The position numbers and the translations under genes are program-made. Below are positions 3,355 through 22,994 of a stretch of DNA of 29,656 bases, in pieces. Every line of letters starts with the position of its first letter. Positions within the stretch are counted from its first letter, which is position 1. Below the pieces are notes generated by a model. It was given only the letters and a program-made list of their open reading frames with translations. It was not told the DNA's origin and made no database searches. Origin of the DNA: a virus (taxonomy: Duplodnaviria; Heunggongvirae; Uroviricota; Caudoviricetes); the IMG/VR virus record IMGVR_UViG_2529293215_000019. The stretch is one strand, 5' to 3'.

Positions 3355-3626
3355 GTATTCGTATCGAAATTGGCGAACGTTATGTCGTTACCAGTGACAG
3401 CTTTCAGTTTATTCTCCACGAGAAAAAGAGAGCGGAAAGCGGTAAAAACGCCGGCCAGGAATGGCTGGCGGTGGTTGGTTATTACCCGAAATTAAGCCAG
3501 CTCGTTTCCGGCCTGATGCATCACGATATTCTTACCGGAAGCGCAAAGTCTTTTGCTGATTTAAACGCGCAGGTTGAGCAACTCAGCAAGCGTTGTTCAG
3601 AGGCTTTTGGCTCATATGGCCGTTAA
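3351..3626 (+). CDS. hypothetical early protein (P2 orf83 position)
   Basis: 91-aa ORF; ATG at 3351 overlaps upstream stop (ATGA); 3' end overlaps the first ATG of gene A by 11 nt. Confidence 0.5.
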   Translation: MSIRIEIGERYVVTSDSFQFILHEKKRAESGKNAGQEWLAVVGYYPKLSQLVSGLMHHDILTGSAKSFADLNAQVEQLSKRCSEAFGSYGR

Positions 3627-5898
3627 AGCCTCCGGGCGTTTTGTCCCTCCGTCAGCATTTGCCGCAGGCACCGGTAAGACGTTTACCGGTGCTTATGCAT
3701 GGAACGCGCCACGCGAGGCCGTCGGGCGCGAAAGACCCCTTACACGTGACGAGATGCGTCAGGTGCAAGGTGTTTTATCCACGATTAACCGCCTGCCTTA
3801 CTTTTTGCGCTCGCTGTTTACTTCACGCTATGAATACATCCGGCGCAATAAAAGCCCGGTGCACGGGTTTTATTTCCTCACATCCACTTTTCAGCGTCGT
3901 TTATGGCCGCGCATTGAGCGTGTGAATCAGCGCCATGAAATGAACACCGACGCGTCGTTGCTGTTTCTGGCAGAGCGTGACCACTATGCGCGCCTGCCGG
4001 GAATGAATGACAAGGAGCTGAAAAAGTTTGCCGCCCGTATCTCATCGCAGCTTTTCATGATGTATGAGGAACTCAGCGATGCCTGGGTGGATGCACATGG
4101 CGAAAAAGAATCGCTGTTTACGGATGAGGCGCAGGCTCACCTCTATGGTCATGTTGCTGGCGCTGCACGTGCTTTCAATATTTCCCCGCTTTACTGGAAA
4201 AAATACCGTAAAGGACAGATGACCACGAGGCAGGCATATTCTGCCATTGCCCGTCTGTTTAACGATGAGTGGTGGACTCATCAGCTCAAAGGCCAGCGTA
4301 TGCGCTGGCATGAGGCGTTACTGATTGCTGTCGGGGAGGTCAATAAAGACCGTTCTCCTTATGCCAGTAAACATGCCATTCGTGATGTGCGTGCACGCCG
4401 CCAGGCAAATCTGGAATTTCTTAAATCGTGTGACCTTGAAAACAGGGAAACCGGCGAGCGCATCGACCTTATCAGTAAGGTGATAGGCAGTATTTCTAAT
4501 CCTGAAATTCGCCGGATGGAGCTGATGAACACCATTGCCGGTATTGAGCGTTACGCCGCAGCAGAGGGTGATGTGGGGATGTTTATCACGCTGACCGCGC
4601 CGTCAAAGTATCACCCGACACGTCAGGTCGGAAAAGGCGAAAGTAAAACCGTCCAGCTAAATCACGGCTGGAACGATGAGGCATTTAATCCAAAGGATGC
4701 GCAGCGATATCTCTGCCATATCTGGAGCCTGATGCGCACGGCATTCAAGGATAATGATTTACAGGTCTACGGTTTGCGTGTCGTCGAGCCACACCACGAC
4801 GGAACGCCGCACTGGCATATGATGCTTTTTTGTAATCCACGCCAGCGTAACCAGATTATCGAAATCATGCGTCGCTATGCGCTCAAAGAGGATGGCGACG
4901 AAAGAGGAGCCGCGCGAAACCGTTTTCAGGCAAAACACCTTAACCGGGGCGGTGCTGCGGGATATATCGCGAAATACATTTCAAAAAATATCGACGGCTA
5001 TGCACTGGATGGTCAGCTCGATAACGATACCGGTAAGCCGCTTAAAGATACTGCCGCGGCTGTTACCGCATGGGCGTCAACGTGGCGCATCCCGCAATTT
5101 AAAACGGTTGGACTGCCGACAATGGGGGCTTACCGTGAACTACGCAAATTGCCTCGCGGCGTCAGCATTGCTGATGAGTTTGACGAGCGCGTCGAGGCTG
5201 CACGCGCCGCTGCAGACAGTGGTGATTTTGCGTTGTATATCAGCGCGCAGGGCGGGGCAAATGTCCCGCGCGATTGCCAGACTGTCAGGGTCGCCCGTAG
5301 CCCGTCGGATGACGTTAACGAGTACGAGGAAGAAGTCGAGAGAGTGGTCGGCATTTACGCGCCGCATCTCGGCGCGCGTCATATTCATATCACCAGAACG
5401 ACGGACTGGCGCATTGTGCCGAAAGTTCCGGTCGTTGAGCCTTTGACTTTAAAAAGCGGCATCGCCGCGCCTCGGAGTCCTGTCAATAACTGTGGAAAGC
5501 TCATCGGTGGTGATACTTCGTTACCGGCTCCCACGCCTTCTGAGCACGCCGCAGCAGTGCTTAATCTGGTTGATGACGGTGTTATCGAATGGAATGACCC
5601 GGAGGTCGTGAGGGCGCTCAGGGGCGCATTAAAACACGGCCTGAGAAGACCAAACCGTCAGCAAAGAAACGGAAGCCCGTTAAAACCGCATGAAATAGCG
5701 CCATCGGCCAGACTGACCCGGTCGGAAAGAATGCAAATTACCCGTATCCGCGTTGACCTTGCTCAGAACGGTATCAGGCCGCAGCGATGGGAGCTTGAGG
5801 CGCTGGCGCGTGGTGCGACCGTAGATTACAACGGGAAAAAATTTACGTATCCGGTCGCTGATGAGTGGAGTTGGTTTTATTGTTATTCAGAGCAATAA
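3616..5898 (+). CDS. A: rolling-circle replication initiation endonuclease (P2 gpA-like)
   Basis: ORF of about 760 aa from the first ATG (3616; the track start at 3574 is TTG); contains a paired-tyrosine segment AGYIAKYISKNIDGY typical of rolling-circle initiators; position and size match P2 gene A. Confidence 0.88.
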   Translation: MAVKASGRFVPPSAFAAGTGKTFTGAYAWNAPREAVGRERPLTRDEMRQVQGVLSTINRLPYFLRSLFTSRYEYIRRNKSPVHGFYFLTSTFQRRLWPRIERVNQRHEMNTDASLLFLAERDHYARLPGMNDKELKKFAARISSQLFMMYEELSDAWVDAHGEKESLFTDEAQAHLYGHVAGAARAFNISPLYWKKYRKGQMTTRQAYSAIARLFNDEWWTHQLKGQRMRWHEALLIAVGEVNKDRSPYASKHAIRDVRARRQANLEFLKSCDLENRETGERIDLISKVIGSISNPEIRRMELMNTIAGIERYAAAEGDVGMFITLTAPSKYHPTRQVGKGESKTVQLNHGWNDEAFNPKDAQRYLCHIWSLMRTAFKDNDLQVYGLRVVEPHHDGTPHWHMMLFCNPRQRNQIIEIMRRYALKEDGDERGAARNRFQAKHLNRGGAAGYIAKYISKNIDGYALDGQLDNDTGKPLKDTAAAVTAWASTWRIPQFKTVGLPTMGAYRELRKLPRGVSIADEFDERVEAARAAADSGDFALYISAQGGANVPRDCQTVRVARSPSDDVNEYEEEVERVVGIYAPHLGARHIHITRTTDWRIVPKVPVVEPLTLKSGIAAPRSPVNNCGKLIGGDTSLPAPTPSEHAAAVLNLVDDGVIEWNDPEVVRALRGALKHGLRRPNRQQRNGSPLKPHEIAPSARLTRSERMQITRIRVDLAQNGIRPQRWELEALARGATVDYNGKKFTYPVADEWSWFYCYSEQ

Positions 5899-5970
5899 AC
5901 ATCTGATTTAATTTGTTGCATAATAGTAAAATTGCTGTTTATCTGCATGTGGTAACTATTGATAATTATG

Positions 5971-5998
5971 TTGCTAATAATGTGTGCAAATTTATACT
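5971..5998 (+). promoter_or_regulatory. candidate sigma70 promoter for the cargo gene
   Basis: TTGCTA (5971-5976), 16-bp spacer, TATACT (5993-5998), in a very AT-rich 116-bp leader; followed by AAGGTGA SD and ATG at 6015. Confidence 0.5.
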
Positions 5999-6014
5999 GA
6001 AAAAGGTGAAAACG

Positions 6015-7847
6015 ATGAATGATATCTTTGTTCTTACAAGGGAAGAGCTTGAAACACTAGATTATAGTGTTTTTATGCATATACCAGTTACATTTCATGC
6101 ACATAAAATAAAAAAATATCTGGATGGGATTGCTGAATCATCAGAAAACCCCAAAGAGAAAAAATTAGCATCTCTTTTTGGTATGCTATATAGTTTCAAT
6201 TTGCAAGTTGTTAACAACACTCCATCATTTGAACCCCAAATGATTTGGGGTAATAAAAGATCAATATTGCCTGAAGATTTTGATGAGCAGGTGAATGACT
6301 GTCTTTTATATGTTTCTCAAAAAATAACCAATCCATTTTTGTTATCAAGAATATATGATGTTGTTTGGTGTAATAATCGGAAAAATAAAGACGTGGCAAT
6401 TAAAGCAATTGATTCCTATGCTGAAATGCTAAATATAGCAATTGAAAGACTAATAATAAAAAACGAAAGCATGGATGAAAGTGATTTAAATTGCTTTATT
6501 TTTGCTCGTGATTATATTGCTAGGGCTTTGCACATTAATAAAATGGTCTACCCTAGAAAATCAGAAGGAAACATGGCGATTAAAAATGCCATTCATTCTC
6601 TTTATAGTATTCAAAATGAAAGATTAATCTTTGAAGGTTTCAATAATTTGACTTGGTTTATGGTGCGTGATTTTGATGGGTATAATCTGCAGTATGCGGA
6701 AAATGCTGAGAAGATGGCTGAGCAGCATAAAGATAAAAAATATTATGATGCTGTAAAATCACTTTATATGACAAGTGCAGTTATTTATGAAAAAAATGGT
6801 GAGTATGAACGTGCCAAGAGATGTAAACTGGCATCTGCAAATATTACTATTAAAGTTGCAACAGATCGACCTGATAATATGGGTAAGATCTCTTGGTTAA
6901 GAACAGCTATCTCTGAATTAAGACAGTACGGTGGTGATAGCCAACAGATAGAAGATTTAAAGGAACAACTTGCTAATTTGAGAGAAGAAGTAAGGAGTGA
7001 ATATGTCACTTTAAGCCATTCTATTGATATTAGTGACTTGGTTGCTGAAAGTGAAAAAAAACTGACGGGGCGTTCTTTGCCCGATATATTCAAAGTTTTA
7101 ATGCGTGAAACACCGATTGAAAATATTGAAAGCATGAGGGAGCAAGTTTTAAGATTATCAGAAAAAAGTTTATTCTCTAGTTTTGTTGGAACAGAAATTA
7201 ATGATGAGAGTGGGCGTAAGGTATATACAATCCCGCCGTTGGATAATAAAAAAGATATGAGTGATGATGTTGTTATTGATCAATATCTAAGAAATTTCGA
7301 GATTACTCATAAGATTTTTGTAAACGGTGTCTTTGAACCTGCTCGCTATGTACTTTCTCAAGAACATGGCTTGACGTTGTCAACATTCGTTAAATTAGTT
7401 ACAACTAGTCCAATTGTCAAGCCGGAGTTTAGGGAGATTTTTAATTTGGGCTTTTACAAATTATGGCAGGGAGATTACATCAGTGCAGCTTATCTTTTAA
7501 TACCACAAATGGAAGGTATGGTTCGTTATTATTATGAGCTTAGTGGAAAGGATGCTACTAGATATTTGGATAAGGGATTAGAGGAGTCAACAAGTATTTC
7601 TCAGCTTCTAGATAAATGCAGAGATGATTTGGAAAGTATCTTTTCTAAGAATCTTGTTTTAACTATCGATGTTCTTTTTAATAGAAAGAGTGGGGCAACC
7701 TTAAGACATAAATTAGCACATGGTAATTTATATACTAATGCTTGTTACGATGAAACAACGACATATGCATGCATCCTGATTTTCTTTCTGTGTGCTTATC
7801 CTCTCCTACCATATTTTGATACTGTATTTGAACAGGGCTCTGTTTGA
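6015..7847 (+). CDS. hypothetical 610-aa protein in the A-cos variable locus; candidate anti-phage defence / abortive-infection protein with C-terminal HEPN-like R-x4-H motif
   Basis: Long uninterrupted ORF; first ATG at 6015 with AAGGTGA SD (track start at 5913 is TTG); markedly AT-rich by eye versus GC-rich flanking phage genes; occupies the P2 tin/old position; RHKLAHG motif at 7704-7724. No family recognised from sequence alone. Confidence 0.8.
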   Translation: MNDIFVLTREELETLDYSVFMHIPVTFHAHKIKKYLDGIAESSENPKEKKLASLFGMLYSFNLQVVNNTPSFEPQMIWGNKRSILPEDFDEQVNDCLLYVSQKITNPFLLSRIYDVVWCNNRKNKDVAIKAIDSYAEMLNIAIERLIIKNESMDESDLNCFIFARDYIARALHINKMVYPRKSEGNMAIKNAIHSLYSIQNERLIFEGFNNLTWFMVRDFDGYNLQYAENAEKMAEQHKDKKYYDAVKSLYMTSAVIYEKNGEYERAKRCKLASANITIKVATDRPDNMGKISWLRTAISELRQYGGDSQQIEDLKEQLANLREEVRSEYVTLSHSIDISDLVAESEKKLTGRSLPDIFKVLMRETPIENIESMREQVLRLSEKSLFSSFVGTEINDESGRKVYTIPPLDNKKDMSDDVVIDQYLRNFEITHKIFVNGVFEPARYVLSQEHGLTLSTFVKLVTTSPIVKPEFREIFNLGFYKLWQGDYISAAYLLIPQMEGMVRYYYELSGKDATRYLDKGLEESTSISQLLDKCRDDLESIFSKNLVLTIDVLFNRKSGATLRHKLAHGNLYTNACYDETTTYACILIFFLCAYPLLPYFDTVFEQGSV

Positions 7848-7874
7848 TAACGTATACGTTGAGGCATAAAACCT

Positions 7875-7921
7875 ATGCATACTTAGCTGCATCAATTTGC
7901 ACGAGGTATTTCAGTATGCAT
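7875..7921 (+). terminator. candidate stem-loop downstream of the cargo gene
   Basis: 9-bp inverted repeat ATGCATACT (7875-7883) / AGTATGCAT (7913-7921) followed by TTTTCTG; the loop is long (29 nt), so terminator function is uncertain. Confidence 0.3.
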
Positions 7922-7998
7922 TTTCTGCGTAATAGTAGGGATTGCTTGGTTTGGTAGTTGTAATTCAACTGCATTCAAACCGACCCATGAAGCGGGCG

Positions 7999-8017
7999 GG
8001 CGAGGCGGGGAAAGCAC
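7999..8017. other. cos site (19-nt cohesive-end sequence of P2-type phages)
   Basis: GGCGAGGCGGGGAAAGCAC matches the P2 cohesive-end sequence as I recall it; lies between the end of the early/accessory region and portal gene Q, as expected. Confidence 0.7.
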
Positions 8018-8158
8018 TGCGCGCTGGCGGTGGTGCTGATTTTATTTTTTCAGCGTCTGAGCGCGTCGTGGCGGCGTTTAGATTTTGCGCCGGGGCGTTG
8101 CTGTGTCTGCGGGCTGTTTTGTGCGGTGGTGAGCGTGTGAGGGCGTGATGACTGGGTG

Positions 8159-8186: not shown

Positions 8187-9221
8187 TCAGCCGTTGTCAG
8201 TGTCCAGTGAGTAGTTTTTAAAGCGGATGACCTCCTGACCGAGCCAGCCGTTTATCTCGCGGATCCTGTCCTGTAACGGGATAAGCTCATTGCGGACAAA
8301 GACCTTTGCCACTTTCTCAATATCACCCAGCGACCCGACGTTCTCCGGCTTGCCGCCCATCAACTGAAAGGGGATGCGGTGCGCGTCCAGCAGGTCAGCG
8401 GCGCTGGCTTTTTTGATATTAAAAAAATCGTCCTTCGTTGCCACTTCACTGAGCGGGATAATTTTAATGCCGTCGGCTTTTCCCTGCGGGGCATAGAGAA
8501 ACAGATTTTTAAAGTTGTTGCGGCCTTTCGACTTGACCATGTTTTCGCGAAGCATTTCGATATCGTTGCGATCCTGCACGGCATCAGTGACGTACATGAT
8601 GTATCCGGCATGTGCGCCGTTTTCGTAATACTTGCGGCGGAACAGCGTGGCTGACTCATTCAGCCAGGCAGAGTTAAGGGCGCTGAGATATTCCGGCATG
8701 CCGTACAGCTCCTGATTAATATCCGGCTCCAGCAGATGAAACACGGAGCCGGGCGCGAAAGGTGTCGGCTCGTTGAAGGACGGCACCCACCAGTAAACAT
8801 CCTCCTCCACGCCACGGCGGGTATATTTTGCCGGTGAGGTTTCCAGTCTGATGACCTTACCGGTGGTGCTGTAACGCTTTTCCAGAAACGCATTACCGAA
8901 CACCAGAAAATCCAGCGCAAAGCGGCTGAAATCCTGCTGGGAAAGCCACGGATGCGGGATAAATGTCGAGGCCAGAATATTGCGTTTGACGTAAATCGGG
9001 GAGCTGTGATGCACGGCAGCACGCAGGCTTTTTGCCAGACCGGTAAAGCTGACCGGTGGCTCATACCATCTGCCGTTACTGATGCACTCGACGTAATCCA
9101 GAATGTCACGGCGGTCGAGTACCGGCACCGGCTCACCAAAGGTGAATGCCTCCATTTTCGGGGCGCTGGCGGTCATTTTTTTTGCCGCAGGTTGCGGTGT
9201 TTTCCCTTTTTTCTTGCTCAT
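8187..9221 (-). CDS. Q: portal protein (P2 gpQ-like)
   Basis: 344 aa, the length of P2 gpQ; ATG at 9221 overlaps the stop of upstream P (ATGA); located next to cos. Confidence 0.9.
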   Translation of the reverse strand: MSKKKGKTPQPAAKKMTASAPKMEAFTFGEPVPVLDRRDILDYVECISNGRWYEPPVSFTGLAKSLRAAVHHSSPIYVKRNILASTFIPHPWLSQQDFSRFALDFLVFGNAFLEKRYSTTGKVIRLETSPAKYTRRGVEEDVYWWVPSFNEPTPFAPGSVFHLLEPDINQELYGMPEYLSALNSAWLNESATLFRRKYYENGAHAGYIMYVTDAVQDRNDIEMLRENMVKSKGRNNFKNLFLYAPQGKADGIKIIPLSEVATKDDFFNIKKASAADLLDAHRIPFQLMGGKPENVGSLGDIEKVAKVFVRNELIPLQDRIREINGWLGQEVIRFKNYSLDTDNG

Positions 9222-10993
9222 CAGTAAAACTCCAGAATGGTGGATGTCAGCGGTGTGCTGATACCGGCGGTGAGTGGCTCATTTAACAGGGCGTGCATGG
9301 TCGCCCATGCGAGGTCGGCGTGGCTGGCTTCCTCGCTGCGGCTGGCCTCATAGGTGGCGCTGCGTCCGCTGCTGGTCATGGTCTTGCGGATAGCCATAAA
9401 CGAGCTGGTGATGTCGGTGGCGCTGACGTCATATTCCAGACAGCCACGACGGATAACGTCTTTTGCCTTGAGCACCATTGCGGTTTTCATTTCCGGCGTG
9501 TAGCGGATATCGCGCGCGGCGGGATAGAACGAGCGCACGAGCTGGAACACGCCGACACCGAGGCCGGTGGCATCAATACCGATGTATTCGACGTTATATT
9601 TTTCGGTGAGTTTGCGGATGGATTCCGCCTGGGTGGCAAAGTCCATACCTTTCCACTGGTGACGCTCAAGTATTCTGAATTTGCCACCGGCCACCACCGG
9701 CGGTGCCAGTACCACGCATCCGGCGCTGTCGCCACGGTGTGACGGGTCGTAACCAATCCATACCGGTCGGGAGCCGAACGGATTTGCGGCAAACGGCGCA
9801 TAGTCTTCCCATTCTTCCAGCGTGTCGACCATGCAGCGTTGCAGCTCCTCGAACGGGAATACCGATGCCTTGTCATCAACAAATTCACACATGAACAGGT
9901 TTTTAAAATCGTCGGCGCTGTTTTCGCGTTTAAGCTGCTCAATGTCGAACAATGTGCAGCCACCTTTCAGGGCGTCCTCAATGGTGACAATCTGCCGCCA
10001 CTGGCCGTCCGCACAGAGAAGCCCACCGGCAAGGGCGTTATGACTGACGTCGATTTCCACGCGTTCGGCGGCGCTGGCGCGTCCCCGGTTGAACAGTTCA
10101 CCTGACCAGAACGGGTAGGCGTCGTGCGCCAGCGTGGACGGGGTGGAGAAATAGGTCGAGCGCAGGTGACTCTGTGAGGCCATACCTGATGCCACCTTAC
10201 GCAGTACCTGAAAATTCGGGATCCAGAAAATCTCGTCGACGTACAGGTCGCCGTTATGGCTCTGTGCGGTGTTGGAGTTGGTGCCGAGAAAAATCAGTTT
10301 TGCGCCGTTATTGCCCAGGACAATCGGGTCACCGGTCAGGTCAACGTCAACCAGACGGGCAAAGGCGATGATGTATTCGCGGAACACATACGCCTGCGTT
10401 TTACTGGCCGACAGAAAAATCTGGTTATGACCGGTTTTCAGGGCGCGCAGCAGCGCCTCGCGGGAAAAATAAAACGTCGCGCCAATCTGGCGGGATTTCA
10501 GGATATCGCGGATGCGGTGCTCAAGCCCGGCGCGATACCAGTGCAACTGATATTCGAAAGACTGCTCAAAGAAAATCTGCTCCAGCTTTTCGATGGCCTC
10601 GTCACTGAAAAAATTCTTTTTCGGTTTGCGACGCCCGCCTTTGTTGCGGTTAGCGATGTTCGGATTAAGGTCTGCCTCGTTGCCGGTCTGGCTGTAGCGG
10701 TTTACCCGTGCCAGTCGTTCAATCTGGCGTCCGAGCAGGTCAATTTCCTTGAAGTCACCGCCGGTTTTCTGCGGTTTGATGATGAGCTGGGTCAGCCGCG
10801 CTTCCAGACTCATTTCGACACGGCTGATGGGGGCAACACTGTCCCAGCCGTCGCGCTGTTTCCAGCTCTGCACCGTCGGGCGTTTCATCTGCAACATGGC
10901 GGCAATCTGCGGCACGGAAAACCCCTGCCAGTACAGCAGCGCCGCCTGACGACGCGGGTCGTGTAAAAGAGTGGTGTCTGTGGTGATGGTCAT
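9221..10993 (-). CDS. P: terminase large (ATPase) subunit (P2 gpP-like)
   Basis: 590 aa from the first ATG (10993, preceded by GAGG; track start at 11023 is an alternative codon), the length of P2 gpP; N-terminal HTH-like region then ATPase/nuclease-sized body; upstream of the portal gene. Confidence 0.9.
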   Translation of the reverse strand: MTITTDTTLLHDPRRQAALLYWQGFSVPQIAAMLQMKRPTVQSWKQRDGWDSVAPISRVEMSLEARLTQLIIKPQKTGGDFKEIDLLGRQIERLARVNRYSQTGNEADLNPNIANRNKGGRRKPKKNFFSDEAIEKLEQIFFEQSFEYQLHWYRAGLEHRIRDILKSRQIGATFYFSREALLRALKTGHNQIFLSASKTQAYVFREYIIAFARLVDVDLTGDPIVLGNNGAKLIFLGTNSNTAQSHNGDLYVDEIFWIPNFQVLRKVASGMASQSHLRSTYFSTPSTLAHDAYPFWSGELFNRGRASAAERVEIDVSHNALAGGLLCADGQWRQIVTIEDALKGGCTLFDIEQLKRENSADDFKNLFMCEFVDDKASVFPFEELQRCMVDTLEEWEDYAPFAANPFGSRPVWIGYDPSHRGDSAGCVVLAPPVVAGGKFRILERHQWKGMDFATQAESIRKLTEKYNVEYIGIDATGLGVGVFQLVRSFYPAARDIRYTPEMKTAMVLKAKDVIRRGCLEYDVSATDITSSFMAIRKTMTSSGRSATYEASRSEEASHADLAWATMHALLNEPLTAGISTPLTSTILEFY

Positions 10994-11166
10994 GAATACC
11001 TCGCCGTGATGAATACACGGCAAGGCTACTGAGTCGCGCCCCGCGATTCGCTAAGGTGCTGTTGTGTCAGTGATAAGCCATCCGGGACTGATGGCGGAGG
11101 ATGCGCATCGTCGGGAAACTGATGCCGACATGTGACTCCTCTAATCACTATTCAGGACTCCTGACA
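10994..11166. promoter_or_regulatory. divergent late promoter region (P operon leftward, O operon rightward)
   Basis: 173-bp spacer between divergent P and O genes, the position of the Ogr-dependent late promoters in P2. I could not find a clean TGT-N12-ACA element by eye. Confidence 0.4.
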
Positions 11167-19326: not shown

Positions 19327-19930
19327 TTCGCGACTGCTGCCGACCGGCTCATCACCGCTTGAAGTCGCCGCCGCAAAAGCCTGTGCGGAAATTGAAAAAA
19401 CGCCGGTCAGTATTCGTGAGCTGTGGAACCCGGATACCTGTCCGGCAAATCTGCTGCCGTGGCTGGCGTGGTCATTTTCGGTTGACCGCTGGGATGATAA
19501 ATGGCCGGAAGCGACAAAACGCGCTGTTATCCGCGATGCGTATTTCATTCACTGCCATAAGGGTACTATAGGCGCAATCCGGCGTGTGGTGGAGCCGCTC
19601 GGCTATCTGATTGAGGTGAGGGAGTGGTGGCAGCTCAACGAGGAGCCGGGGACGTTCCGCATCGTTGTTGGCGTGCTTGAGCAGGGTATTACCGAGGAAA
19701 TGTATCAGGAGCTGGAGCGTCTCGTTGCTGATGCAAAACCGGCAAGCCGCCATCTGACGGGACTGGCTATCAGTTTAAGTACAACCGGCAACATTTTTGC
19801 CGGTGCGGGATGCTATCACGGTGACGCCCTGACGGTTTATCCCTACACCCCGGAGGCCATTATTGTCGGAGGGGATTATTTCCCGGCCTCGGCCATTCAT
19901 TTAATTGATAACCTGAGAGTAAACGCATGA
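19319..19930 (+). CDS. I: baseplate protein (P2 gpI-like)
   Basis: 203 aa; ATG at 19319 overlaps the J stop and the stop overlaps the H start; somewhat longer than the 176 aa I recall for P2 gpI. Confidence 0.8.
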   Translation: MSDSRLLPTGSSPLEVAAAKACAEIEKTPVSIRELWNPDTCPANLLPWLAWSFSVDRWDDKWPEATKRAVIRDAYFIHCHKGTIGAIRRVVEPLGYLIEVREWWQLNEEPGTFRIVVGVLEQGITEEMYQELERLVADAKPASRHLTGLAISLSTTGNIFAGAGCYHGDALTVYPYTPEAIIVGGDYFPASAIHLIDNLRVNA

Positions 19931-21120
19931 CAGTGAAATACTACGCCATTCTGACTAATCAGGGCGCAGCACGGCTGGCTAACGCGACGATGCTCGGCAG
20001 TAAGCTGAATCTGACGCAAATGGCCGTTGGTGATGCGAATGGTGTCTTGCCGACACCAGACCCGGCACAGACAAAACTGATTAACCAGAAACGCATCGCG
20101 CCGCTGAATCTTCTGAGTGTTGACCCGAACAACCAGAGCCAGATTATTGCGGAGCAAATCATCCCTGAGAACGAGGGTGGATTCTGGATCCGTGAGATTG
20201 GGCTTTATGATGATGAAGGCGTACTCATTGCGGTGGCGAACTGCCCGGAAACGTACAAACCGCAGTTGCAGGAAGGCAGTGGTCGTACCCAGACTATCCG
20301 CATGATTCTGGTTGTCACGAATACCGAAGCTATCACGCTGAAAATCGACCCGTCGGTGGTACTGGCGACCCGTAAATACGTGGATGATGAAGTCCTGGAA
20401 TTAAAGCTGTATGTGGATGACCAGATGAGAAACCACATTGCCGCACAGGATCCTCATACCCAGTATGCGCAGAAACATAATCCGACATTTACCGGAGAAC
20501 CAAAAGCGCCGACGCCTGCCGCAGGAAATAACACCACGCGGATTGCGACCACTGAGTTTGTTCAGGCCGCTATTACCGCTCTGATTAACGGTGCGCCAGC
20601 CACGCTGGACACACTGAAAGAAATTGCCGCAGCCATTAACAATGACCCGAAATTCAGTACCACCATTAACAATGCGCTGTCAGGTAAGCAGCCACTGGAT
20701 GAGACGCTGACTCATTTGAGTGGAAAGGATGTTGCCGGTCTTCTCGCATACCTTGGTTTGGGAGAAGCGGCAAAACGGAATGTAGGTAACGGGCAAAACC
20801 AAATTCCGGATATGGCGGCGTTTGCCAGTTCACTTTCATCAACGGGTTTTCAAAAACTTCCTTCAGGTCTGATTATTCAGTGGGGTATTGTCAGTGGAGC
20901 ATCAAACTATACGGTGACTTACCCGGTAACATTCCCAAATCGTTCACTTGCGCTGTTGGCTGTGCCACATACAACGTCGGTGGCTGGTATATCTGCAATG
21001 GGCATAGCGAACTGTTCTGATATCAGCAAATCACAGTTCTATATAATTGTTGGCGGTATATCTCAGGGAGAAATTGTCAAATATGAAAGATCCTGTTTTT
21101 GGGTAGCAATCGGTGTATAG
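19927..21120 (+). CDS. H: tail fibre protein (gpH-like), constant N-terminal part fused to invertible C-terminal variable part
   Basis: 397 aa; ATG at 19927; the last ~110 codons lie inside the invertible segment, downstream of the 34-bp repeat at 20753-20786. Confidence 0.8.
   Translation: MTVKYYAILTNQGAARLANATMLGSKLNLTQMAVGDANGVLPTPDPAQTKLINQKRIAPLNLLSVDPNNQSQIIAEQIIPENEGGFWIREIGLYDDEGVLIAVANCPETYKPQLQEGSGRTQTIRMILVVTNTEAITLKIDPSVVLATRKYVDDEVLELKLYVDDQMRNHIAAQDPHTQYAQKHNPTFTGEPKAPTPAAGNNTTRIATTEFVQAAITALINGAPATLDTLKEIAAAINNDPKFSTTINNALSGKQPLDETLTHLSGKDVAGLLAYLGLGEAAKRNVGNGQNQIPDMAAFASSLSSTGFQKLPSGLIIQWGIVSGASNYTVTYPVTFPNRSLALLAVPHTTSVAGISAMGIANCSDISKSQFYIIVGGISQGEIVKYERSCFWVAIGV
20753..20786. 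repeat. left 34-bp inverted repeat (invertase crossover site) inside gene H
   Basis: TTGGTTTGGGAGAAGCGGCAAAACGGAATGTAGG; the perfect reverse complement occurs at 22300-22333. Confidence 0.8.
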
Positions 21121-21128
21121 GTATATCT

Positions 21129-21524
21129 ATGATTTATTTCTCAAAATCGACTAATGGTTTTTTCTTTGATGGTATAAACAGCGACATGCCTGCTGACATT
21201 GTTGAGATAAGTACAGACTTATACAATGAATTAATTGCCGGACAGCAGGAAGGGGGTAAATTAATCACGTCAGATGAAAATGGTTTACCGGTACTGAAAT
21301 CTCCGGCGATTGATTATGTCGCACGTGCTGAAAATCAGCGAATGCAGTTACTTGCTCATGCCGATAATGTCACAGCTGACTGGCGGGTGGAATTAATGCT
21401 TGGTGATATCAGCAGTACAGATAAAGAAAAACTATCTGCCTGGATGGACTACAAAAAAGAAGTAAAAGCCGTCGACACTTCGACGGCTCCTGAGATTAGC
21501 TGGCCTGAGTTACCGGAGGTGTAG
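21129..21524 (+). CDS. tail fibre assembly protein (Tfa, orientation 1)
   Basis: 131 aa from the first ATG (21129), directly after the H stop; C-terminus VDTSTAPEISWPELPEV resembles the conserved Tfa C-terminal segment and is shared with the minus-strand copy. Confidence 0.7.
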   Translation: MIYFSKSTNGFFFDGINSDMPADIVEISTDLYNELIAGQQEGGKLITSDENGLPVLKSPAIDYVARAENQRMQLLAHADNVTADWRVELMLGDISSTDKEKLSAWMDYKKEVKAVDTSTAPEISWPELPEV

Positions 21525-21939
21525 GCCATTCAATATCTGGAGCACTGGAGGTATCCACCAGTTCCAGTGCGTCCAGGTAATCCAGCCACAAATTATATTG
21601 CGCCAGTTCCTCACCTTTCAGACGACCAATAGCTGCTTTGCCAGGCCATTGCTTACTGTTCATGTATTCGTTAGCCTGGTTAATTAGTAGCTGTCTTTCT
21701 GATTCAGTAATTTCAATAAGCTCTTCATGCGTGGGTGGAGGAATATCTGCCCACGCAGGCAGCCCATCATCTCCGGCAATACGGATTTTTCCTTGTGGCG
21801 GTTCAGCCATAAACTCACTGATAATATTTTGATTTACTTCCTTAGCGTCTGATAAATCCCATCCCTCTGATTTATATTTATCAATCATATCCACAGGGAA
21901 AAAAGCATTATGCCTTGCGCTATAAACATATTCGTTCAT
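21496..21939 (-). CDS. tail fibre assembly protein (Tfa', orientation 2)
   Basis: 147 aa from the ATG at 21939 (GGGTGA SD; track start at 21948 is GTG); C-terminus VDTSSAPDIEWPTPPV parallels the plus-strand Tfa; 3' end overlaps the plus-strand tfa by 29 bp. Confidence 0.65.
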   Translation of the reverse strand: MNEYVYSARHNAFFPVDMIDKYKSEGWDLSDAKEVNQNIISEFMAEPPQGKIRIAGDDGLPAWADIPPPTHEELIEITESERQLLINQANEYMNSKQWPGKAAIGRLKGEELAQYNLWLDYLDALELVDTSSAPDIEWPTPPVTQAS

Positions 21940-21959
21940 ATAAATCACCCTGAATAAAA

Positions 21960-22333
21960 TTACTCACCAACAGCCCACCAACTGTAATTCATCGATACTG
22001 TGGAGCTGGTTGATGCAGTTCTGTAAGCGGAATTAAAACCGGTTAGTGTTGGACCTTCTGCAGTCATCACGAATCCCCGTCCAGCGCCTAAAGGCGCACC
22101 ACCATCACCAGAATGGGTAAGCATGGCGCAGTCCACTTTTTTAGGAAAAGGGATGCTGAATGTAATTCTCATTGTTTGCGTCGATAATGTCGGCGTAATC
22201 GCACCACGACCATATTGCAGGATTTTCCCGTTGGGTAATTTCATCCATCCATCACCACTGGCAAAAGAGGTCATGTCCGGTATCTGATTTTCCCCCGTTC
22301 CTACATTCCGTTTTGCCGCTTCTCCCAAACCAA
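21960..22333 (-). other. alternative tail-fibre C-terminal coding segment (Hv'), without its own start; fused to H only after inversion
   Basis: Minus-strand reading frame through the right repeat encodes [24 protein letters not shown]..., paralleling the H segment [25 protein letters not shown]... after the left repeat; stop at 21960-21962. Confidence 0.65.
22300..22333. repeat. right 34-bp inverted repeat (invertase crossover site)
   Basis: Reverse complement of 22300-22333 is identical to 20753-20786. Confidence 0.8.
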
Positions 22334-22400
22334 CGTTTATGAAAATGCAGAGATAACGGGCAAGTGGCATCATCTCCGGTTTTTATTCAGGGGGATGCTC

Positions 22401-22994
22401 ATGCTTATTGGCTATGTACGCGTGTCGACAAATGACCAGAACACGGAATTGCAGCGTAACGCGCTGGAGTGCGCAGGATGCGAGCGGATTTTTGAGGATA
22501 AAATCAGCGGCACGAAGTCCGACCGACCGGGACTGAAAAAACTGCTCAGAACATTATCAGCAGGTGACACTCTGGTAGTCTGGAAGCTGGACAGGCTGGG
22601 GCGTAGTATGCGGCATCTGGTCATTCTGGTTGAGGAACTGCGCGAACGCGGCGTTAATTTTCGCAGCCTGACAGATGCTATTGATACCAGCACGCCGATG
22701 GGGCGTTTTTTCTTTCATGTGATGGGTGCCCTGGCTGAAATGGAACGAGAGCTCATTGTCGAGCGGACTCGGGCCGGGCTGGAAGCGGCCAGAGCCAAAG
22801 GTCGTATTGGTGGCAGACGTCCTAAACTCACCGCGAGTGAGTGGGAGCAGGCCGGGCGTTTGCTGGCTGCAGGGGAGTCACGTCAACGCGTGGCACTGAT
22901 TTTTGATATTGGTCTGTCCACGCTCTATAAAAAATTTCCCTCATCAGCGACAAAGAATAAATTGTGTCATCCCTTAGCCAACCGGGACAAATAG
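22401..22994 (+). CDS. serine recombinase DNA invertase (Gin/Cin/Pin/Hin family)
   Basis: N-terminus MLIGYVRVSTNDQNTELQRNAL with the catalytic-serine motif, and HTH-containing C-terminus LSTLYKK, closely resemble Mu Gin; AGGGGGA SD upstream of the ATG at 22401; adjacent to the invertible segment. Confidence 0.9.
   Translation: MLIGYVRVSTNDQNTELQRNALECAGCERIFEDKISGTKSDRPGLKKLLRTLSAGDTLVVWKLDRLGRSMRHLVILVEELRERGVNFRSLTDAIDTSTPMGRFFFHVMGALAEMERELIVERTRAGLEAARAKGRIGGRRPKLTASEWEQAGRLLAAGESRQRVALIFDIGLSTLYKKFPSSATKNKLCHPLANRDK

Follow-up and report, generated by a model that had tools for sequence, protein, structure and literature searches.

A solitary P2-hotspot prophage protein of the DUF4209/C6orf70 family carries a predicted HEPN ribonuclease site

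HepS and DARNA are single-protein HEPN defences that form default-inactive oligomers, are gated by their non-catalytic part and cleave tRNA. HepS, the 'HEPN Solo' of the Gifsy-1 prophage, acts by abortive infection; it is a tRNA anticodon nuclease with an R-x4-6-H site, inactive by default and allosterically activated by a phage protein. In RNase L and Ire1 (KEN domain) and in Csm6 (CARF-HEPN), a sensor region is fused to a C-terminal HEPN domain whose RNase activity requires the dimer. Anantharaman et al. (2013) classified DUF4209 as the C6orf70 HEPN family and described it as 'fused to TPR', as commoner in bacteria than in eukaryotes and as occurring in R-M related operons. Its eukaryotic prototype has been described as a protein of the ER membrane that contains a transmembrane region (PMC3710099).

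The window analyzed here is a 29,656-nt stretch of a P2-like E. coli prophage (IMG/VR record IMGVR_UViG_2529293215_000019). A coding sequence at 6015..7847 (+ strand) specifies a 610-residue protein composed of DUF7380, a TPR-like region and a DUF4209/HEPN region (PADLOC PDC-S39; PHROG 5183; RefSeq WP_000997853.1). The gene lies in a variable, low-GC single-gene island (5899..7962) that extends from the end of gpA to the point where P2 homology resumes, and that corresponds by GC content and homology to the P2 gpA-gpQ defence hotspot described in PMC9122126. GC content was 0.31-0.37 in the island versus 0.51-0.58 in the flanks, and other P2-like phages aligned to the window DNA solely from 7963 onward. 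The flanking genes are gpA (3574-5898; domain match to Phage_GPA) and the annotated portal and terminase genes (8187-11023, - strand). Acquired horizontally, the gene forms a one-gene cargo of the cos-proximal gpA-gpQ hotspot, its location and solitary architecture having been established computationally.

This cargo is not rare. Rousset et al. ranked the protein 13th among P2-hotspot cargoes, with 193 occurrences in 18,150 P2 loci, and in our searches ~1% of complete E. coli genomes carried it, among them O157:H7 strains whose copy is 100% identical. Phage P2-EC46 carries an allele with 33% identity. A profile search of the family returned more than 3,300 clusters at 50% identity, with relatives on bacterial plasmids and on one haloarchaeal plasmid. 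The protein is one of the commoner cargoes of the P2 defence hotspot, and its family is large and spread over many types of mobile element.

The N-terminal part of the protein (aa 4-184; 6024..6566, + strand) is a DUF7380 domain (PF24098; Pfam E 3e-39, 135 bits vs a cut-off of 27), which was matched by all 70 of the diverse relatives scanned. The alignment of relatives revealed a nearly invariant polar cluster in this domain, consisting of R82, D88, R112, D115, W118, Y135 and R170. It is followed by a central, all-alpha helical repeat region resembling TPR and SNAP proteins (~aa 185-384; 6567..7166, + strand). This region, presumed to be a sensor or scaffold, ranks with the most weakly conserved parts of the protein. 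The PDC-S39 HMMs of PADLOC matched the full length (aa 7-598) at E 2.3e-84 and 1.7e-83. An NCBIfam scan of the protein gave no match, and PHROGs contributed families of unknown function only. When profiles of the N- and C-terminal domains were searched separately for other architectures, only fragments of the same family were recovered.

Near the C-terminus, the codons AGA CAT AAA TTA GCA CAT GGT at 7704-7724 (+ strand) encode R-H-K-L-A-H-G, residues 564-570 of the open reading frame, which sequence and alignment identify as the predicted catalytic R-x4-H motif of a HEPN domain. A preliminary description of this DNA had placed R-H-K-L-A-H at 7704..7721, followed by G, about 40 residues before the C-terminus, and had read it as a HEPN-type active site. 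The codon assignment was exact, and H569 is 41 residues from the C-terminus. Taken by itself, the R-x4-H motif is within chance expectation: at least one R-x4-H occurred in 42% of 5000 same-composition shuffles of the protein, and at least one R-x(4-6)-H in 81%. The protein contains three R-x(4-6)-H matches, starting at residues 426, 444 and 564. These frequencies, and the two further matches, are what would be expected if RHKLAH were a chance match without function. However, in a MAFFT alignment of 154 full-length family members with a median identity to the query of 23%, R564 and H569 were each invariant (154/154), as the homologue comparison proposed at the outset was meant to reveal, and G570 was kept in 149/154 (97%). 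In contrast, the histidines of the other two matches were poorly kept in the same alignment (H432 in 27/154, H451 in 71/154). Thus, the motif at 564-569 is distinct from a chance occurrence. It also occupies the position in the predicted fold that is given for R-x4-6-H in PMC3710099. The conservation data effectively refute the chance reading, whose likelihood we regard as negligible.

Two additional features of HEPN active sites were detected in the alignment. A polar residue (N, D or H) directly after the arginine is a typical HEPN trait (PMC3710099), and position 565 was H in 125/154 relatives, N in 26/154, D in 2/154 and S in 1/154. The second conserved HEPN motif, E-x3-[KR] in helix 2 (PMC3710099), corresponds to E500-x3-R504 (7512..7526, + strand), which would provide auxiliary active-site residues. 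E500 was conserved in 154/154 and R504 in 153/154 relatives, and both lie within a predicted helix (498-509). R564/H569, the polar residue at 565 and E500/R504 are the features by which Anantharaman et al. define a HEPN active site, and their presence supports the HEPN reading. Alternatively, the domain might have a HEPN fold but be non-catalytic, serving as a binding or scaffold module like the nucleotidyltransferase-linked HEPN proteins, with R and H used for ligand binding or folding. The families that lack catalysis are, however, those that lost R-x4-6-H (Anantharaman et al., PMC3710099), whereas in the present family R, H, the polar neighbour and E-x3-R are kept at 99-100%, with a median identity to the query of 23%. 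A nucleotidyltransferase partner was also not found nearby. We therefore consider a non-catalytic domain very improbable.

The structure model of the C-terminal part (pLDDT 94.6) places a HEPN core at ~aa 470-606 (7422..7832, + strand). It comprises helix 1 (470-484), a kinked helix 2 (488-509), an insert (510-544) with a beta-hairpin and short helices, helix 3 (545-568, broken at G560-P561), a loop (569-579) and helix 4 (580-606). The R-x4-H motif is located at the end of helix 3. This examination of the fold, which the preliminary description had suggested for its proposed active site, favours a site of the HEPN type. Foldseek against the PDB gave no match at E <= 0.001, the top match, Csm6 (6tug), being non-significant. 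A profile search of PDB sequences likewise returned nothing significant (best match TTC29 TPR, E 0.039) and no solved structure among the sequence relatives. Note that the last helix is hydrophobic (Kyte-Doolittle value of 1.78 over 19 residues) and was considered as a membrane anchor, as described for C6orf70. This was rejected, because the segment contains a charged or His residue in 136/154 relatives and the model assigns it to helix 4 of the HEPN domain. In contrast to the eukaryotic prototype, the query is without a conserved transmembrane helix.

The Pfam DUF4209 model (PF13910) matched the query only weakly (aa 524-590; 19.5 bits vs a cut-off of 22.3, E 1e-3). The same model matched 61 of 70 diverse relatives at E <= 0.01 (best 1e-12), and 24 of the 28 proteins retrieved with a profile of the C-terminal domain were already annotated with PF13910. 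Thus, the protein belongs to DUF4209 by transitivity. A 99%-identical phage protein is named 'DUF4209 domain-containing protein' in GenBank. The query shares with the DUF4209/C6orf70 family a conserved R-[HN]-x3-H-G signature and the prediction of an active RNase. This family assignment added to the support for the active-site reading from R/H conservation, the polar neighbour and E-x3-R. AbiD/AbiF, RnlA and Cas13, which the preliminary description had offered as family examples, did not prove apt: the query is a DUF4209/C6orf70 protein, and no Abi_2, RnlA or Cas13 model appeared in the Pfam scan (five families listed) or in the PADLOC scan (PDC-S39 only). It is not a member of AbiD/AbiF (Abi_2), RnlA/LsoA or Cas13, and neither an antitoxin nor a regulatory RNA or a CRISPR array was found in its surroundings. 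It is highly probable that the C-terminal ~140 residues constitute a HEPN domain with an intact site, its fold and conserved catalytic residues having been obtained by computation. We infer, with good but lesser confidence, that this domain is an active RNase.

We analyzed the genomic neighbourhood of the family for a conserved partner gene. Across 77 loci from many phyla, no neighbour was common to more than 6 loci. The genes next to distant relatives included type I R-M genes, Dcm, IetAS, DrmC, PifA, QatA, a KAP NTPase, integrases and IS66. The TPR fusion and the R-M neighbours described for the C6orf70 family agree with the TPR-like fold and the neighbours seen here. A nucleotidyltransferase family was absent from the 25 most frequent neighbour families, and in the window neither a cognate antitoxin nor a nucleotidyltransferase adjoins the gene, which is alone in its island. 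Neither the 77 loci nor an Rfam search around the gene revealed a partner, antitoxin or regulatory RNA that would explain restrained toxicity.

The assignment of this protein to HEPN is supported but had been made before in the literature, so that the motif call, although correct, repeats a known assignment. Rousset et al. (2022) catalogued the protein behind the PADLOC candidate PDC-S39 as P2-hotspot system 13 ('DUF4209') and cloned it as pFR103 ('Putative HEPN'). PDC-S39, system 13 and pFR103 represent the same protein as the query, from which nothing structural differs, and have the status of a candidate system only. The entry in Table S5B of Rousset et al. opens with the same N-terminal sequence as the 610-residue protein. 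The pFR103 DNA corresponds to the window starting at 5815; 3 mismatches were seen over 399 nt, and the first 399 residues differ at 2 amino acids. The P4 'HEPN-TPR' clone pFR83 of Rousset et al. was considered as a possible relative, but by eye its sequence looked unrelated. Literature mentions of PDC-S39, DUF4209 and PF13910 were confined to genome surveys and the 2013 HEPN paper. No biochemical data on any DUF4209 protein were found in the literature. Human C6orf70 is presumably ERMARD; no papers on DUF7380, PF24098, WP_000997853 or ERMARD together with HEPN were found in the literature.

A near-identical allele has been exposed to phage. In pFR103, it was carried with its native promoter on a pSC101 plasmid in E. 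coli MG1655, and the panel comprised lambda, T4, P1, 186cIts, CLB_P2, LF82_P8, AL505_P2 and T7 (Rousset et al., 2022). The clone is listed among the 'additional tested systems' and is absent from the validated list; according to the authors the eight-phage panel is small, and expression of the clone was unconfirmed. Absence from the validated systems after this test would be consistent with a competent HEPN RNase that has a role other than defence: a prophage addiction or stress toxin, RNA processing or regulation for the prophage life cycle, or degradation of cyclic oligonucleotides against host defences. The P2 hotspot also holds partition systems and a cytolethal distending toxin, housekeeping HEPN domains exist (Las1, Ire1, Swt1), and HEPN can deplete cyclic oligoadenylates. 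On the other hand, members of the family are encoded by solitary genes in many phyla and also on plasmids, and their surroundings vary but abound in R-M and defence genes and mobile elements. Two independent predictors flag the protein or its relatives as defence candidates: PADLOC through PDC-S39, and DefensePredictor, which scored E. coli proteins named 'DUF4209 domain-containing protein' as novel defence genes. For an addiction module, moreover, no cognate antitoxin was found. A non-defence role is therefore rather unlikely, though it deserves more weight than the other alternatives considered above, and for anti-phage defence by the 610-residue protein we put the chances at even.

On balance we favour, with some reservation, a model in which R-x4-H is the catalytic motif of a DUF4209/C6orf70 HEPN RNase within a stand-alone hotspot protein that mediates sensor-gated abortive infection. 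The protein would be made in the lysogen and held inactive. Its N-terminal helical region would sense a cue specific to infection, and the cue would cause dimerization or rearrangement of the protein. Two R564/H569 motifs, aided by E500/R504, could then meet to form a composite RNase site with the metal-independent chemistry of HEPN RNases, which leaves 2',3'-cyclic phosphate ends. In the active dimer or higher oligomer, the two H569 residues would lie roughly 8 A apart, as reported for active Csm6 and HepT. Cellular RNA cut at this site would lead to translation arrest and thereby abort the infection. By analogy with HepS, DARNA, ApeA and PrrC, the likeliest RNA target may be tRNA anticodon loops.

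Among the known systems, HepS may offer the best functional model, by analogy, for the query protein. Both are prophage-encoded single genes without partner or antitoxin. The motif is R100-H105 in HepS and R564-H569 in the query, which in addition has DUF7380 and the TPR-like region. The two differ in prophage type and locus, and neither Pfam nor PADLOC links them. In DARNA (PD-T7-3) the domain order is reversed compared to the query, with HEPN at the N-terminus, and the sole PADLOC match of the query was PDC-S39 rather than DARNA or ApeA. The arrangement of a sensor region with a C-terminal HEPN RNase in RNase L, Ire1 and Csm6 may be likened to that of the query in logic. If the protein is a sensor-gated RNase, knowledge of what triggers it and which RNA it cuts would extend the growing set of single-protein HEPN defences, such as HepS, DARNA and ApeA, by a new DUF7380/TPR-like sensor module, and could hint at the role of the eukaryotic DUF4209 protein.

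A broader and distinctly speculative reading, which we consider unlikely, is that DUF7380-TPR-HEPN proteins are unrecognized and very widespread autonomous sensor-RNases, in which the N-terminal polar cluster may bind a conserved ligand and not a variable phage protein. Candidate ligands would include nucleotides, features of RNA or ssDNA, and other universal signals of infection or stress. If such ligand binding were true, these proteins would be ligand-gated HEPN nucleases like RNase L or Csm6, without a dedicated signal synthase alongside, and the prophage protein would provide a first mechanistic handle on the uncharacterized eukaryotic C6orf70 homologue.

Finally, we inspected the non-coding DNA on both sides of the gene. 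In the surrounding DNA, Rfam gave no hit that would indicate a regulatory or antitoxin RNA, and Tandem Repeats Finder gave no meaningful repeat array. The upstream region (5899..6014, + strand) is AT-rich and was included in pFR103, which Rousset et al. built with the 'native promoter'. It contains a Shine-Dalgarno-like AGGTGA at 6004-6009, 5 nt ahead of the ATG. Since the RefSeq annotation, the aligned N-termini of homologues and this Shine-Dalgarno-like site agree, the start at ATG 6015 is supported. Two sigma-70-like sites were observed at 5896-5924 and 5971-5998; as both are weak and such sites are no commoner than in shuffles, they are no more than suggestive of a promoter. On the other side of the gene, ~150 nt 3' of the stop codon, a P2-type cos core, GGCGAGGCGGGGAAAGCAC, is located at 7999..8017, which we take to be the 19-nt cohesive end of cos. 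The same string is also present in cos-adjacent P4 clones (Rousset et al., Table S2B).

The codons AGA CAT AAA TTA GCA CAT GGT at window 7704-7724 encode R-H-K-L-A-H-G, within a plus-strand open reading frame (ORF) spanning 5913-7847. RefSeq places the start at the ATG at 6015, giving a 610-residue 'DUF7380 domain-containing protein' (WP_000997853.1; the HEPN protein). This start is backed by the N-termini of homologues in the alignment, by an AGGTGA sequence at 6004-6009 and by the upstream part of the ORF, which is not common to the homologues. Numbered from this start, the motif is R564...H569-G570, H569 being 41 residues from the C-terminus, and the placement of RHKLAHG at 7704-7724 in the preliminary description was exact.

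On its own, without conservation, an R-x4-H pattern has little meaning. A word-indexed search returned 21 relatives, the full-length ones down to 48% identity, and LRHxLAHGN was unchanged in 20/20 aligned full-length sequences of this set. An exhaustive profile search yielded 3,359 cluster representatives at E <= 1e-3 (615 at E <= 1e-30), the best 150 matches being mostly proteins of 600-640 residues matched over their full length. Conservation was counted in an alignment of 154 full-length members (median identity to the query 23%). A chance motif might be argued from shuffles of the HEPN protein, 42% of which contain R-x4-H; R-x(4-6)-H occurs in 81% of shuffles and three times in the protein itself, at 426, 444 and 564. 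However, R564 and H569 are each invariant (154/154), as the proposed check on homologues had asked, whereas the histidines of the two control matches are found in only 27/154 (H432) and 71/154 (H451), making coincidence extremely improbable. G570 is present in 149/154 members, and position 565 is H in 125, N in 26, D in 2 and S in 1. The other highly conserved residues are E500 (154/154), R504 (153/154), P497 (152/154) and G560 (151/154). Conservation peaks at residues 467-512 and 546-572, the stretches around E500/R504 and R564/H569.

HEPN domains are characterized by R-x4-6-H with a polar N, D or H directly after the R; often, helix 2 also contains E-x3-[KR], which contributes a second acidic residue. 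Helices 2 and 3 are separated by an insert, and R-x4-6-H lies where helix 3 ends and continues into the loop toward helix 4 (Anantharaman et al. 2013, PMC3710099). All of these features are present in the query domain. An AlphaFold2 model of residues 385-610, built from a 140-sequence alignment, was confident (pLDDT 94.6, pTM 0.91) and contains a helix at 470-484, a helix with E500 and R504 at 488-509, an insert at 510-544, a helix at 545-568 that breaks at G560-P561 and has R564 to A568 at its end, a loop at 569-579 and a long helix at 580-606. Pfam DUF4209 scored 19.5 bits against the query, just under the 22.3-bit cut-off, and matched 61/70 diverse relatives; 24/28 proteins retrieved with a profile of the C-terminal domain were already annotated PF13910. 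DUF4209 is the C6orf70 HEPN family with conserved R-x4-6-H, which shows TPR fusions and R-M related operons and is commoner in bacteria than in eukaryotes (PMC3710099). The HEPN-type reading of the motif is thus supported by the conserved R and H, E-x3-R, the predicted fold and the DUF4209 membership of relatives, and we consider it highly likely that the C-terminal domain is of the HEPN type and retains its full set of catalytic residues. A HEPN domain devoid of catalysis is very unlikely. Two details of the preliminary description require correction: the motif lies at the end of helix 3 in the model, not at the start of a helix, and the family is DUF4209/C6orf70 rather than AbiD/F, RnlA or Cas13.

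In the enterobacterial clade, the helix that closes the HEPN domain, YACILIFFLCAYPLLPYF (residues 582-606, window 7758-7832), reaches a Kyte-Doolittle value of 1.78 over 19 residues and passes a transmembrane threshold. A transmembrane reading was rejected because 136/154 relatives have a charged or His residue in this segment, which is therefore most likely a buried core helix.

At the N-terminus, Pfam DUF7380 covers residues 4-184 (E 3e-39) and was found in all 70 relatives scanned. This region (residues 1-190, window 6015-6584) holds a near-invariant polar cluster, R82, D88, R112, D115, W118, Y135 and R170 (144-151/154 relatives). Such invariance would not be expected if the domain sensed variable phage proteins; the cluster may form a pocket for a ligand or the surface that contacts the HEPN domain.

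The window is a P2-like prophage, with integrase and Cox at its left end, gpA at 3574-5898 and portal and terminase on the minus strand at 8187-11023. The HEPN gene is the sole gene of a 2-kb island with a GC content of 0.31-0.37, compared to 0.51-0.58 in the flanks, and the match to other P2-like phages resumes only from 7963. About 150 nt downstream of its stop codon lies GGCGAGGCGGGGAAAGCAC (7999-8017), which we take to be the P2-type cos core. The gene is therefore cos-proximal cargo, as in the description of the gpA-gpQ hotspot, which is the site it occupies (Rousset et al. 2022, PMC9122126). Several E. coli O157:H7 chromosomes carry the locus at 100% identity and phage vB_EcoM-569R9 carries it at 99%; it is present in 55/5,426 complete E. 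coli genomes. Near the gene, neither an Rfam family nor a meaningful repeat array was found. Note that a GC-rich 68-residue ORF (7942-8148, plus strand) overlaps the cos region; it has no Pfam match, and a short hypothetical protein near this position is annotated in one GenBank phage record and not in RefSeq. It is probably not a gene.

The HEPN assignment is not new, the family having been called HEPN in 2013 and the gene labelled 'Putative HEPN' and tested in 2022. PADLOC gave a full-length match to candidate system PDC-S39 (E 2e-84), for which the literature contains only genome-survey listings, one in O157:H7 strains. The query protein is P2-hotspot system 13, 'DUF4209', with 193 occurrences, and a second DUF4209 variant is system 55 (Rousset Table S5B, PMC9122126). 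Plasmid pFR103, 'Putative HEPN', carries one gene from the P2 locus of E. coli S88 (Table S2B); its insert differs from the window, from 5815 onward, by 3 mismatches in 399 nt, and its protein from the query by 2 differences in the first 399 residues. Table S2B lists 'additional tested systems' and Table S2A the validated ones. Defence was shown by 3/8 additional P2 systems, the HEPN gene not being among those described, with a panel of lambda, T4, P1, 186cIts, CLB_P2, LF82_P8, AL505_P2 and T7; the authors state that, because their panel was small, defensive systems are undercounted (PMC9122126). DefensePredictor scored E. coli 'DUF4209 domain-containing protein' entries (595-617 residues) as novel defence genes, with AbiJ/Abi_C as best remote homologue; their accessions are absent from those supplementary files that have no DUF4209 entries, among them the table in which tested systems receive DS numbers. 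A HEPN RNase serving a role other than defence is possible, though rather unlikely. No biochemical work on any DUF4209 protein was found in the literature.

Across 77 loci from Proteobacteria, Cyanobacteria, Chloroflexota, Verrucomicrobia and others, no conserved neighbour was found, no gene family being common to more than 6. Neighbours include type I R-M subunits, Dcm, KAP NTPase, IetAS, DrmC, PifA and QatA, as well as XRE regulators, integrases and IS66. Relatives also reside on plasmids, one of them in a haloarchaeon. Absence of a common neighbour together with plasmid and phage carriage indicates a self-contained single-gene module on mobile elements. Another P2-like phage, P2-EC46 (AM157366.1), carries a second, strongly diverged allele (33% identity, full length), so that, together with system 55, the family seems to have entered the P2 hotspot, or diversified there, more than once. 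In five Pseudomonas loci, an apparently XRE-type HTH protein of ~158 residues is encoded directly upstream on the same strand (in L015, L016 and L047 at about 7143-7684). Absent from the E. coli prophage, this protein may be a regulator particular to that lineage.

The best-supported model, by analogy, is a sensor-gated RNase. The DUF7380 and TPR-like N-terminal part would keep the enzyme off until an infection cue is detected; activation would join two HEPN motifs in a composite site, and RNA cleavage would arrest translation and abort infection. The present analysis shows the fold, the conserved residues, the architecture and the context; we infer RNase activity, dimerisation, trigger, target and phenotype from characterized systems. 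HepS is likewise a prophage-encoded solo HEPN protein; its tetramer is inactive by default, responds to a tail-tip protein and cuts the anticodon loops of tRNA. DARNA/PD-T7-3, an oligomer combining HEPN with a helical domain, is activated when phage SSB presents ssDNA to it, and it too cleaves tRNA; the best match to its HEPN domain is Csm6 6TUG. The same scheme applies to RNase L and Csm6.

Elsewhere in the prophage, 19927-22994 looks like an invertible tail-fibre host-range switch. Plus-strand tail-fibre (19927-21120) and assembly (21099-21524) genes are followed by a second assembly gene (21496-21948) and an alternative fibre C-terminus (21960-22373), both on the minus strand, and a serine invertase (22395-22994; Resolvase and HTH_7). 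The segment is flanked by 89-nt inverted repeats (20741-20829 and 22257-22345) with 81% complementarity, and GC falls to 0.42 in this region.
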